64,000 bases of DNA from Curvularia clavata (Eukaryota). Below, in pieces: positions 1-4,429 of the stretch. The notes under the pieces were generated by a model. The model ran no database searches. It was given only the letters and a program-made list of their open reading frames with translations, and had not been told where the DNA came from. Position 1 is the first letter of the stretch. Each line of letters opens with the position of its first letter. Made by a program: the position numbers and the translations under genes. The DNA is taken from the NCBI GenBank assembly GCA_023920165.1, contig CP089275.1, positions 930,001 through 994,000 on the forward strand. Direction: 5' to 3'.

Positions 1-1035
1 AGATCTCCACCACCCGTGTGTCTAGGGACGGCACTGGGCTGCACAGCACTGAGGGCTGCATTGTTGCCATCGGCCTCGTCGCCAACTGCATTGCCATCTG
101 CTGCTCGAGCCGCCCGCCGCCGCTGCTGCAAATTCGCTCCGGCCCGTCGACGCAGCAGCAGCAGCTGTTGCTTGCCTGCCCGCCTGCTTGCTTGCTTGCG
201 TGCGTGCGTGCTTCCCTCGCCAGCCGGGCGGCCAGCCGGGCAGCCAGCCAGCCAGCCCAGGCCCGCGCGCATCGGAACAACTTGGCAGCGACGCCGGGCG
301 CGGGCAGGGATTGGTCGCGCCTTCTCTTGCGAGCAAGCGGGCAGCAACAGACTGCGGGGCGGGGCGTGCGCTGCTCGCCTGTCCACGGCTGCCCTCTTAG
401 CTGCGGCCTGCCTGCTGTCGAGCGCTGCAGAGAATCCTGCAGCACTGCCGACGACAACGAACGACTTCGATTCTCCACACCCTCTCCCTCACTCTCGTCG
501 CCTTTGCACGCAAAAGAAGCCCTCTGCTCGTGAGTACTGCATCCGTATCCATATCCATACCCATACCCATATCCCTCCCCTGCCCACTCCCTCCCCGCCG
601 GACTCGCCACCTGCGTTTCCCGTGCACCCTCGCCTATCGCTCCTGCGCCCTCTCTGGTTGGGCCACGCCCAGCACTAGCTGCCAAAGTCACATCCCAACC
701 ACCTCCGCCTCTAAACCTCCGCCTCCCCACCGCAGTCTGCGAAGAAGCCCTTCGCTCGTTCTCTCTGGCTGCACACTCCCCCCCACCCCTTCTACCCCCT
801 CTCCCCCCCAATAGACTGTCGCTTGTCCCTTTGCACAAAAGCTCCCTGCTCTTCTGCCGCTGCTTCGTCCTCTCCGCGCCGCTGCAGCCTCTCGACTGAC
901 ACGCGTGTGTCGCGTAGTCTTATTCTTGCACTTGCAGCCGCTATCGCTATCGATACTGCTTGACCCGCATCCCCCCCAAGCGCGACGACGTTACGACTGT
1001 TTACGACAACATTGCTCCCAGACGACCCCAAACAC

Positions 1036-1113
1036 ATGTTTCTGGCATTCGCAGTCCGATTCCGCTATTCTTCCAGGCCGGCTTTTGTCAATTCCCACCT
1101 TTGCGTCTTCTGA
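1036..1113 (+). promoter_or_regulatory. Sole upstream ORF in the stuA upstream region (MFLAFAVRFRYSSRPAFVNSHLCVF*)
   Basis: The only ATG found on the + strand in 1-1982; ends at TGA 1111-1113. Leader micro-ORF regulation is known for Aspergillus nidulans stuA. Confidence 0.5.
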
Positions 1114-1517
1114 TCCCACACCCCCCAAAAAGCATTTGTCGACGACCAGCCCTTCTCTGCTTTACGACTGCAACGACGTAACGACCAGCTTTTCCCCCCT
1201 CCAGCATTGTTTGCAGCGTTCCACTTGATCCAGCAGCTTCCCGCGCCCATAGCCTATTTCTCTCCCCCACATCGGTTCGCAGCCAAGCCATCCTGGTCAG
1301 TATTCCCCCCGAAGCCAACTTCGCTCTCTTCTTGCCTACCTCTGTGCACACCCTCTGCAGCCAATCCACCACCACCTTTGCCTCTGCTAGCAATCAACTA
1401 ACTGGCCCTTCCAGATTATTCGCTCCGCCAACCTCTTGCCGCTACCTGCAGCCACGAGCGAGCCATCATCCTGCCGAACACGCCTGTGTGCAGCTGCGCT
1501 TTCATCTGGACGACTGA

Positions 1518-1982
1518 CTCGGCAATCTTTTCCAAGAAGCGCTCGACGTCCGACCCCAACAACCACATTTTCGACATCCCCTCAATACCGTAAAGCTGGA
1601 GCTCCCATCGATCTCGTCGGTCCACGCCCGCGGCCCTGCTGACTCTTGGTACCCATCCCATTACGCACCCAAGCCTGCCACCTCCAGCGAACGTCTACCA
1701 GCCCTGCCCCAGATTCAGTCGCACCCAAGCTCGTCGTCAAGCTCGTCGTCACCTCGCGGTGATTCCATCAGTTCTGGTTCGGTCACTGGCGGAAGCGCCA
1801 GCTCCAATACGTCGTACGCCGCGTCCGTCAACGGGCACACCACCGGCTTCAAGACGCCTTCCCCAAAGCACGCCCCCCAGGACCTCAGGCGAGACTCCCA
1901 CTCCCTCAACGTCCAGTCGGTCCAAAGCTCTCCCTTTGGCTCTCAGGAGGGATACAGTTTTGCTCCCGGCGGCTACAACAGC
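1518..1982 (+). other. stuA: AUG-less in-frame N-terminal extension of StuA (155 open codons; candidate CUG start at 1596)
   Basis: Frame open from TGA 1515-1517 to ATG 1983; reads KLELPSISSVHARGPADSWYPSHYAPKPATSSERLPALPQ...GFKTPSPKH...GGYNS-M. CTG 1596-1598 has A at -3 and G at +4. Confidence 0.6.
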
Positions 1983-4094
1983 ATGAACCAGATGCAATCG
2001 TATGCTGACGTGCATCAACCCCACATGGCTACTGCTGCTCACGCCCCAGCTTCGGCCCCTCCCTCGGGCCTGTCGCATTATTCCTATCCACCACAACCTT
2101 CAATGATGCAGTCGCAACATCAATATAGCCAAGGTCCGCCTGGCGGCTACCCTCCATACGGCTATGCTGGTGGAGTCCCCTCGCAAATTCCGGCTTCTTC
2201 ATCCATGAACCAGGCCATGGTACCATCTACTCTTCAACTACCAGGTTAGTTTTTGTCCTTCTATCCCTCTCTCTAGCATACAACAAGTAAGCCTAACATG
2301 TACAAGCAATGTCTTCTGGCGCGCCGGCTTCGTCACTACCGGGCTCTCAAAGCTACCAGACCCAGACATTCGACCACACTGGTCAAGTTGCTCCTCCAGG
2401 AATGAAGCCACGTGTGACTGCCACGCTCTGGGAAGACGAAGGCAGTCTTTGCTTCCAGGTCGAGGCCAAGGGTGTTTGCGTTGCCCGTCGTGAGGGTGAG
2501 TCAAAATGGGTTGATTCGGTAGGGAAACCAGACGAACTAACAACTAGCAGACAATCACATGATCAACGGCACCAAGCTCCTCAATGTTGCCGGCATGACA
2601 CGAGGCCGACGAGACGGCATTCTCAAGAGCGAGAAGACACGTCATGTTGTCAAGATCGGTCCTATGCACCTGAAGGGTGTCTGGTTAGTTTTGTCTTGTA
2701 CCTCTCTTCTTATGATGATGATCACTAATTCTCTTGTCAGGATTCCCTTTGAGCGAGCCCTCGAGTTCGCCAACAAGGAGAAGATCACAGAGCAGTTGTA
2801 CCCTCTGTTTGTCCATGACATTGGTGCACTGCTTTATCATCCGTCGAATCAGACGAGGTCAAGTGTAGGAAGCGCTGCCATGGCTGCTGTAGACCGCAAC
2901 CGAAGACCTGACCCTATGCAGACTCATCAGCGATACCTCTCTGGACCAGCGGCATCGCAACCTCCGTCGCTACACCACCATCACTCGATGAGCAACCCCA
3001 TTGGCGCTGCCATCTCGCAGCCTCCGCACGCCATTCAGCCTCATCCTTCCTCGGGCCGTCCAGGAATTGATCGAGCCCACACCTTCCCAACGCCTCCCAC
3101 GAGCGCTTCGAGCATCATGGGCATGGGAAATCAGGGAAGCTCTTACGAATGGAACGGCAGCAATGTCCAGAACCCCCAGGGTGGACAGCCGCTGTCTATT
3201 GATACAGGACTCAGCAATGCTCGCTCCGTACCCACGACGCCTGCTAGCACGCCCCCAGGAGCTGTCCAACAAGGCATGCCCTATGCATCCGGACAGAGCT
3301 TCGATGGCTCTCGGCCCATGTATTCCGGTCCTCCTTCCCAGCCCGGCCAGTACGCCCAGGGCCAGCCAATGATGGGTTACCGCCAGGATGGCTCCTACCC
3401 AAAGACCGAGATGGCACCGCCATCCCGCATCACCGAAGTGAACGATGAAGGTGAGGTCAAGCAGCCCGACGGAATGATGCCCCAAGGTCACGAGCAAGTT
3501 GCTCCACCTCCACAAGGCGGTGAAGGTGAACAACACCACGACGGCGAGTACACACACTCCAATAATTCCTACAATGGCAACCGTGGACCGTACGGATACC
3601 CATCCAATGGCCCTTCTGGAGCCATGCACCCTGATCATCCTCATCTCTCTCCAGAGATGACGGGCTCGCCCCATCAAAATGGCTCCGGACGTGCCACACC
3701 CCGTTCGGCTGCAACTGGCCAGCCTCAGTGGTCCTCGGGTTACCCCACTCCCCAGCGCCAGCCACCGCCTTCCAGCAACCTTTACAACGTGATGAGCGAC
3801 CCCCGTGGCGCATCCAATGGCAATGCCGGCCATGACGCCTACCAAGGCCCTGGTACCGTACCTCAGTACGCCACTCAAGGGTATCCTCCTTCCAATGGCG
3901 TAAACTCTGGTAAGCGCGGTCGCGACGACGAAGAAGAAGACCCCTACCGCCCTGATAGCGTTCAAGGAGACGACATGGGTGGTCTTAAGCGACGCAAGAC
4001 CCTCGAAGGCGGTGCCGTCGGTGGACCTTACGCTGATCCTTCTCCTGGCCTCCAGCGCGCGCACACCATGTCAGCCCAGCGACCCAGGCGATAA
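1983..4094 (+). CDS. stuA: APSES-family developmental transcription factor StuA/Asm-1 (~645 aa from first AUG)
   Basis: APSES domain [59 protein letters not shown]...[25 protein letters not shown], plus the [14 protein letters not shown] motif. Introns 2245-2306, 2496-2550, 2684-2740 restore one frame. Confidence 0.96.
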
Positions 4095-4429
4095 TCAAAG
4101 ACTTTGCACATTGCACGGGTGGTCAGTTGCCGTTTAATTGGCTTAGAAGGTGGATTGGCCTCGGTACACAGCGATTTTCTTGGCATCAAGTGAGCGGTTC
4201 TCTTTCAGCAGCATTGCAACATCCAACTACGACAATCTCGCCCGTCGGCGTCTCTTCAACCAGCACCAAACTAGTCGAGATTGTGTGCAAACGCCCAAGT
4301 TCGCTCTCTTATATTTCCTTGTGTCTACGTTCTTTCCAGGGTTTTGTCTCCTATCTACATTTCTGCTCCTCTCGGCATTCACGACTTAACGACCATTTTG
4401 CTTCGTGGAACCAACTGTTCCGACACACC

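Follow-up and report, generated by a model that had tools for sequence, protein, structure and literature searches.

Organization of the stuA locus

The window analysed here is a stretch of 64,000 nucleotides (nt) from Curvularia clavata (contig CP089275.1, positions 930,001 to 994,000), and all coordinates below are positions on its forward (+) strand. It contains stuA, the gene for a developmental master regulator of many moulds, including Aspergillus, Penicillium, Colletotrichum, Pyrenophora, and Monilinia, in which StuA governs conidiation and sexual development as well as secondary metabolism and virulence; the subject of this analysis is the AUG-less reading frame that precedes the first AUG of this gene. 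The StuA (APSES/KilA-N) coding region runs from that AUG to the stop codon at 4092–4094 (1983–4094), with coding introns at 2245–2306, 2496–2550, and 2684–2740 and an optional in-frame intron at 2865–2921, as read from RNA contigs. When the upstream extension was used as a query, the protein model P0002 (‘Cell pattern formation-associated protein stuA [Curvularia clavata]’) was 100% identical to the window over 63% of the query; the remainder of the model aligned by tblastn to 1689–4091 across introns. P0002 carries the KilA-N/APSES domain (Pfam PF04383, E = 1.2e-09), and the gene was thus identified as stuA.

The StuA frame is closed upstream by an in-frame TGA at 1515–1517 and is then open from 1518 to the end of the exon at 2244, with the first in-frame ATG at 1983. 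The 155 sense codons spanning 1518–1982 encode the peptides ELPSISSVHARGPADSWY, ERLPALP, and GFKTPSP, and a CTG at 1596–1598, set in AAG-CTG-G, is the first in-frame near-cognate codon after the TGA in the window if AAG is excepted. The preliminary description of this DNA had reported a frame open for 465 nt upstream of the first AUG, these peptides, and the CTG in this context, all of which were confirmed in the window. It had also proposed an extension of 155 codons; the frame is indeed open over all of them, but only the 129 codons from the CTG (1596–1982) are conserved, and the 26 codons at 1518–1595 are not. The other two frames of 1518–1982 are interrupted by stops at 1591, 1640, and 1760, and no ATG occurs there in any frame, while the composition predicts 3.79. 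Positions 1–1982 hold a single ATG (1036) on the + strand, compared with approximately 15 expected. From the window alone, 155 stop-free codons would be only mildly unusual (P ~0.02 from window composition); the open frame was therefore judged to exceed chance from the comparison with relatives, not from the window itself.

Transcript structure

The stretch was contained in 20 sequencing-run rows, four of which (X1, X9, X10, and X12) were aligned to 1–4400. All four are assembled contigs, and X1, X9, and X10 come from three studies. The contigs of X1, X9, and X10 supported introns at 1296–1414, 2245–2306, 2496–2550, 2684–2740, and 2865–2921, and that of X9 alone supported a further intron at 530–917; GT..AG ends were read in the window in each case. 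The leader thus comprises an exon at 452–529 (a minimum extent, as it is taken from the X9 contig, whose end is not a transcription start site), an intron of 388 nt at 530–917 (joint 529>918), an exon at 918–1295 present in X1, X9, and X10, and an intron of 119 nt at 1296–1414 spliced in the same three. These three contigs, all of them spliced, were unbroken over 1414–2242 and joined to leader exons reaching at least back to 452.

No splice joint was found inside 1415–2244 in the X1, X9, and X10 contigs. The in-frame TGA at 1515, the CTG, the extension, the AUG at 1983, and the first coding part therefore share one continuous exon (1415–2244), and no splice in these contigs supplies an AUG to the frame. 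The preliminary description had named as possible refutations a transcription start downstream of 1596 and a splice junction that brings in an in-frame AUG from upstream. On both points the contigs favoured its proposal, since they run from the leader exons through 1415–2244 and leave the TGA in the same exon. The X12 pieces span 1410–1637 and 1697–2083; X12 coverage was patchy (2353–2646 uncovered, nothing before 883), and no inference was drawn from its gaps.

Distribution of the extension among relatives

The extension alone, used as a query, retrieved 15 proteins, all of which were APSES proteins with PF04383 (15/15). Twelve of these were named, and we take them to be Dothideomycetes, a class membership assumed for all but Curvularia. 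The 15 proteins align from N-T-V-K-L-E-L-P-S-I-S onward, and before this point their N-termini are unrelated and differ from one another. A profile built from 35 extensions retrieved 116 proteins, whose named members included many Aspergillus and Penicillium species, Paracoccidioides, an Onygenales species, Lachnellula, Monilinia, five Colletotrichum species, Venturia, Hortaea, Variospora, Sarcosagium, and Pyrenophora. The annotated models with the extension therefore span Dothideomycetes, Eurotiomycetes, Leotiomycetes, Sordariomycetes, and Lecanoromycetes (lineages checked for five species). The 116 models agree from T-x-K-L onward and have nothing in common before it, and makeshift starts such as MLELPSIS, MILELPSIS, and MPMLELPSIS occur among them.

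For comparison at the DNA level, metagenome and metatranscriptome contigs were scanned with a StuA alignment, which yielded 80 loci; 68 of these and the window made up a set of 69 loci in 35 clusters at 90% identity. Judged by the best named match, the clusters resemble Pleosporales, Mycosphaerellales, Onygenales-like and Aspergillus-like Eurotiomycetes, Helotiales, and Sordariomycetes. Two groups were assigned to no taxon, namely L040, which comprises 5 loci (best named match at 50.6%), and L052/L055 (41–43%). A total of 45 loci (25 of the 35 clusters) were intron-less through the APSES domain, with 174–1445 nt upstream of the CTG, and were therefore regarded as spliced messenger RNA (mRNA). 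Overall, a CUG-started StuA extension seems, on these alignments, to be common to many Pezizomycotina and to be missed or mis-modelled in annotation.

Coding selection and nature of the extension

For the extension without its CTG and without the canonical Met, the proportions of nonsynonymous and synonymous differences (pN and pS) were compared pairwise among the 35 clusters. pN was smaller than pS in all 595 pairs, and the ratio of the corresponding rates (dN/dS) had a median of 0.271 in the 324 pairs with finite dS. Between the window and its closer relatives, dN/dS was 0.13–0.20 at dS values of 0.8–1.7, including 0.149 at a dS of 0.86 for L001. The mean entropies at codon positions 1, 2, and 3 were 1.07, 0.88, and 1.65, respectively, and the reading frame was maintained in 69/69 loci despite many indels. 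Synonymous sites were close to saturation, while the CTG was constant. The extension thus appears to evolve as protein under purifying selection. Codon-level conservation together with a conserved CTG was the check that the preliminary description had set for its own proposal, and both were found.

No Pfam family was found in the extension. It is Ser/Pro-rich and carries short conserved motifs, namely ELPSIS.V..RG at its N-terminal end, ERLP.LP, SSPR, and KTPSP. AlphaFold2 with the 35-row alignment gave a mean predicted local distance difference test score (pLDDT) of 51.1 for the extension and no secondary structure. The extension is accordingly predicted to be a disordered region; it most likely serves as a regulatory module, and it possibly bears proline-directed phosphorylation sites.

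The CUG codon, its context, and its upstream limit

The Leu codon aligned with 1596 was CTG in 69/69 loci and 35/35 clusters. As a control, the invariant Leu two codons later was CTC in 12 clusters, CTG in 10, CTA in 9, CTT in 3, and TTG in 1. A further conserved Leu was likewise encoded by five different codons, the CTG fraction among the remaining Leu codons was 0.233, and every other conserved residue was encoded by several synonymous codons.

The surrounding nucleotides were similarly constrained. The context ACCGNNAAR-CTG-G was almost invariant, whereas the sequence upstream of −9 varied freely; in the window, it reads ACCGTAAAG-CTG-G and occupies 1587–1599 (−9 to +4). Among the 35 clusters, A was found in 33 at −9, C in 35 at −8, C in 34 at −7, and G in 35 at −6; −5 and −4 were variable; −3 and −2 were both A in 35, −1 was G in 29 and A in 6, and +4 was G in 35. 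An A at −3 and a G at +4 are the features of the context to which Ivanov et al. attach the greatest weight in Pezizomycotina, with regard to the near-cognate starts conserved in cpc-1 (PMC5487733). Of the ACCG at −9 to −6 (1587–1590 in the window), the G at −6 alone falls on one of the usual Kozak positions. In two clusters, a stop codon immediately precedes this tetranucleotide, whose conservation is therefore probably at the RNA level.

An in-frame stop was present upstream of the CTG on the contig in 65/69 loci, and an in-frame ATG before the CTG was found in none of the 69. In the 33 cluster representatives with such a stop, it lay 3 codons from the CTG in two clusters, then 4, 6, 7, 8, 8, and 10 codons away and upward; the two closest cases read TAA ACC GAA AAR CTG. 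No near-cognate codon besides AAG or AGG occurred between stop and CTG in 8 of the 33 clusters. The spliced contigs of 23/25 cluster representatives resembling complementary DNA (cDNA) showed the same arrangement, with the CTG preceded by an in-frame stop and by no ATG. Leu 3 and Pro 4 of the extension are invariant yet synonymously variable, which indicates that they are translated and that the start lies at or before codon 2. Together with the tight upstream stops, this would confine the start to the CTG itself, and the CTG at 1596–1598 is our proposed initiation codon for the 129-codon extension, which contains no Met.

Signs of two start sites

Near-cognate starts are generally leaky, and ribosomes that pass such a codon would continue to scan. 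In the window, no ATG occurs in any frame of 1596–1982. Across the 35 clusters, in-frame ATGs amounted to 3 of 4228 codons in the extension, compared with a Met content of 4.03% downstream (630/15621). Out-of-frame ATGs numbered 27 against 62.2 expected, and none of 1000 synonymous-codon shuffles was as low. The canonical Met, encoded at 1983–1985 in the window, and the Asn that follows it were invariant in the alignment, and position −3 of this AUG was a purine in 35/35 clusters (A in 29, G in 6). Where the residue preceding the canonical Met is Ser, its codon was AGY in 21/21 cases, compared with an AGY fraction of 0.200 among the Ser codons of the extension, which suggests that selection acts on the Kozak context of this downstream AUG. 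If ribosomes leak past the CUG to a downstream AUG that is in use, an AUG desert followed by a second start with a maintained context is to be expected, and this combination argues against a model in which the long form alone matters.

The depletion extended upstream of the CTG: in the 34 clusters whose sequence reaches 150 nt or more before this codon, 48 ATGs were counted within 1 kb at most, against 274.8 expected. The only upstream AUG of the window opens a 25-codon upstream open reading frame (uORF; MFLAFAVRFRYSSRPAFVNSHLCVF) at 1036–1113, with its TGA at 1111–1113. Partly conserved uORF-like peptides (M...YSSRPAFVNS.LCVF and variants) were found in 7 other Pleosporales-like clusters, 434–735 nt before the CTG.

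Proposed initiation and alternative explanations

StuA is quite likely translated from the CUG at 1596 into a form approximately 129 residues longer than the accepted protein, as the invariant CTG, its context, and the coding selection suggest. It is also probable, with somewhat less assurance, that the CUG and AUG forms are co-produced, a view supported by the depletion of ATG in all frames and the selected context of the AUG. The two proposals of the preliminary description, a longer CUG-initiated isoform and its co-production with the AUG form by leaky scanning, are thereby strengthened. The mRNA leader is long (at least ~1 kb), spliced, and almost AUG-free, and scanning ribosomes would reach the small uORF first and then the CUG in its strong context (A at −3, G at +4). 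Near-cognate initiation uses initiator Met-tRNA; some ribosomes would start in this way at the CUG and make the StuA that is 129 residues longer, while the remainder would scan through 387 AUG-less nt and start at the AUG at 1983, yielding the textbook StuA. The mRNA structure, the coding selection, the invariant CTG with its context, the close upstream stops, and the AUG desert are shown by the data, and from such signatures we infer initiation at the CUG and a ratio between the two forms. A further possibility, which we hold only tentatively, is that the choice between CUG and AUG is a regulated developmental switch that explains the ‘translational control’ of stuA in Aspergillus, in which case the conserved N-terminal motif and the Ser-Pro sites of the extension would give the two forms different activity, stability, or partners.

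Several observations weigh against this reading or temper it. Assembled contigs reveal neither start sites, nor abundances, nor rare or minor isoforms, and since they give no start sites, a transcript starting downstream of 1596 could also exist. The motif filter used for the DNA set demanded a Leu at the start position; the 12 rejected loci consisted of 11 cut at the 5′ end and L072. The loci are mutually related, which makes probabilities based on independence too favourable. L072 (900–2705) has 900 nt of upstream sequence and no extension, with a stop 4 codons before the Met of MNSAPHYMD. Among named relatives, Chaetothyriales (Cladophialophora, Exophiala, and Capronia; 56–59% identity) are the nearest, and the locus hints that the extension was lost in an L072-like lineage. 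Three clusters have one in-frame ATG within the extension. No conserved hairpin was found after the CUG (RNAalifold, 29 of the 35 representatives, −15 to +75), where the consensus amounted to −1.08 kcal/mol and 3 pairs with 0 compensatory changes. Among protein models, P0043 of Venturia nashicola begins with MELPSIS, its Met lying exactly at the CTG position; if the Venturia DNA reads ATG there, this would amount to a naturally occurring change from CUG to AUG. Five Penicillium models (P0083, P0085, P0087, P0091, and P0096) have MRLLHHPSLHLSH in common and an upstream Met 36–37 codons before K-L, and they diverge in a frameshift-like manner between this shared Met and K-L.

The most serious competing explanation is that the long CUG-started form is the only or main protein and that the AUG at 1983 encodes merely an internal Met. 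Such an arrangement would be equally compatible with the coding selection and with the conserved CTG in its context, and since Met has one codon, the invariance of Met 130 could reflect protein function alone. It would leave unexplained, however, why the extension avoids both Met and out-of-frame ATGs and why the Ser codons before this Met are always of the AGY type, which preserves the purine at −3, and it sits poorly with the general leakiness of near-cognate starts; we consider it unlikely. Far less probable still is ordinary initiation at an upstream AUG that reaches the extension by a rare alternative splice or from an exon beyond the window. Public models do make use of such joints (P0002 consists of an upstream Met, 1417–1590 in another frame, and a predicted intron at approximately 1590–1687), and rare isoforms can escape assembled contigs. 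Against this, the contigs of three studies have no joint within 1415–2244, and the intron of P0002 would excise the CTG and the best-conserved motif by a joint that no RNA contig has. Moreover, the stop without ATG before the CTG recurs in nearly all cDNA-like representatives, each species has a model N-terminus of its own, and just one ATG is available in 1–1982.

Two other explanations appear slightly weaker yet, and we regard both as highly improbable. The region might be an untranslated leader conserved as an RNA or DNA element, as stuA is known for a large 5′ untranslated region (UTR) and translational control (PMC3730340), and as the ACCG at −9 to −6 is conserved though probably untranslated. 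An element of this kind would not account for pN below pS in every pair, for the three-base periodicity, for the free choice of synonymous codons at conserved residues, or for a frame kept in all loci despite indels, and the RNAalifold result gave it no consensus structure. Alternatively, initiation might occur at another near-cognate codon close to the CUG, upstream or downstream. Many clusters do have further in-frame near-cognate codons between stop and CTG, and the Ile of PSIS, encoded by ATC, ATT, or ATA, offers candidates downstream. The upstream candidates are not positionally conserved, in a sequence that varies before −9, and the two clusters with TAA 3 codons before the CTG leave just ACC, GAA, and AAR in between; a downstream start is opposed by the translated Leu 3 and Pro 4. 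Initiation at the CUG thus remains the explanation that we favour.

Comparison with known systems

The closest fungal counterpart is cpc-1 of Neurospora crassa, the GCN4 homologue, which has a conserved N-terminal extension translated from near-cognate codons (Ivanov et al. 2017, PMC5487733); the preliminary description had cited it as a precedent, in agreement with that article. Both genes encode Pezizomycotina transcription factors and have a long uORF-bearing leader. In both, the frame continues upstream for more than 100 residues without an AUG, this extension is conserved at the protein level, and its near-cognate start is conserved, with A at −3 and G at +4. They differ in that several near-cognate codons serve as starts in cpc-1, where an inhibitory uORF overlaps the extension, whereas stuA has one invariant CUG with a tight upstream boundary and no uORF overlap. 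The cpc-1 extension is backed by in-vitro and ribosome-profiling data, while that of StuA is known from sequence. The terms stuA, asm-1, and APSES have 0 mentions in the main text of PMC5487733.

Regulators with two starts are also known elsewhere. c-Myc is made from a CUG and a downstream AUG by leaky scanning (cited in PMC6034079), Podospora IDI-4 has a CUG start, and C/EBP beta is described as starting from a well-placed near-cognate codon, one with a good context (both cited in PMC5487733). In all three, as proposed for StuA, a transcription factor is made as two N-terminal proteoforms, one from an upstream near-cognate codon in good context and one from a downstream AUG; their proteins are unrelated to StuA, whose two forms are deduced here from sequence signatures.

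Within the same gene family, stuA of Aspergillus nidulans is transcribed in two forms (alpha and beta), and its large 5′ UTR contains a small uORF that is linked to translational control (PMC3730340, summarising Miller 1992 and Wu and Miller 1997). In the window, the leader is similarly long and spliced, seems to exist in two forms, and carries a single small uORF; this uORF at 1036–1113 may be the counterpart of that of A. nidulans. The summary in PMC3730340 speaks of the uORF and the UTR without an in-frame non-AUG extension. In the same developmental pathway, the Aspergillus regulator BrlA has a beta form with a 23-residue N-terminal extension from an alternative, uORF-carrying transcript (PMC3563288). 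It resembles StuA in its two N-terminal forms and in the uORF of the longer transcript, but its extension starts with AUG and requires the alternative transcript, whereas that of StuA would start at a near-cognate codon. The 5′ UTR of EFG1, the StuA homologue of Candida albicans, promotes translation (PMC6034079); as with stuA, the product is an APSES regulator, and the leader is very long and influences translation. For Efg1, the authors state that an extended protein ‘can be excluded’, all uORFs ending within the UTR (PMC6034079), in contrast to StuA, where the extension is a feature of Pezizomycotina. No description of a non-AUG or CUG-started StuA extension was found in our literature search, in which the statement on Efg1 was the one related passage and outside which the original A. 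nidulans stuA papers lay, so that an early remark there is possible. Non-AUG N-terminal extensions are already known as a kind, with cpc-1 the closest case in fungi, and that of StuA appears to be new.

Implications

If the proposal is true, the accepted StuA (approximately 600–650 residues from the AUG) is one of two products of the gene, and complementation, overexpression, and tagging constructs that start at the AUG omit a conserved module of 95–139 residues. Profile matches place the extension in Aspergillus, Penicillium, Colletotrichum, Pyrenophora, and Monilinia, and hundreds of public models would bear invented N-termini or introns. P0002, the model of the identical Curvularia gene, is an example, as it cuts out the CUG and the best-conserved motif. 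Translational regulation of stuA has long been noted, and the proposal would also provide a concrete mechanism for it that can be tested, as well as a second deeply conserved near-cognate initiation in a fungal master regulator, after cpc-1. Should the choice of start prove to be a developmental switch, decades of AUG-built StuA constructs would have tested only half of the gene output throughout the Pezizomycotina. The role of the extension itself is one that we infer from its motifs and composition.

Additional features of the leader and coding region

Two leader forms were visible in the RNA contigs. X9 splices 529 to 918, whereas the X1 (812–1294) and X10 (729–1244) contigs run within that intron, and there are thus signs of an alternative leader or promoter at 452–1295. 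This pair resembles the alpha and beta transcription units of stuA in Aspergillus, with the reservation that contig ends are not start sites.

In the coding region, the 57-nt in-frame GT..AG intron at 2865–2921 takes out 19 residues. It was spliced in the X1, X9, and X10 contigs, and X12 showed both retained (piece 2786–2936) and spliced forms; the 19 residues are kept in the public model and in orthologues. This segment looks like an optional ‘exitron’ that yields an additional StuA isoform.

Short repeats of the CATAC/CCATA type and long pyrimidine-rich tracts were present in the leader and its intron (541–600 and 780–830), and polypyrimidine tracts upstream of stuA have been reported for Aspergilli (PMC3730340).

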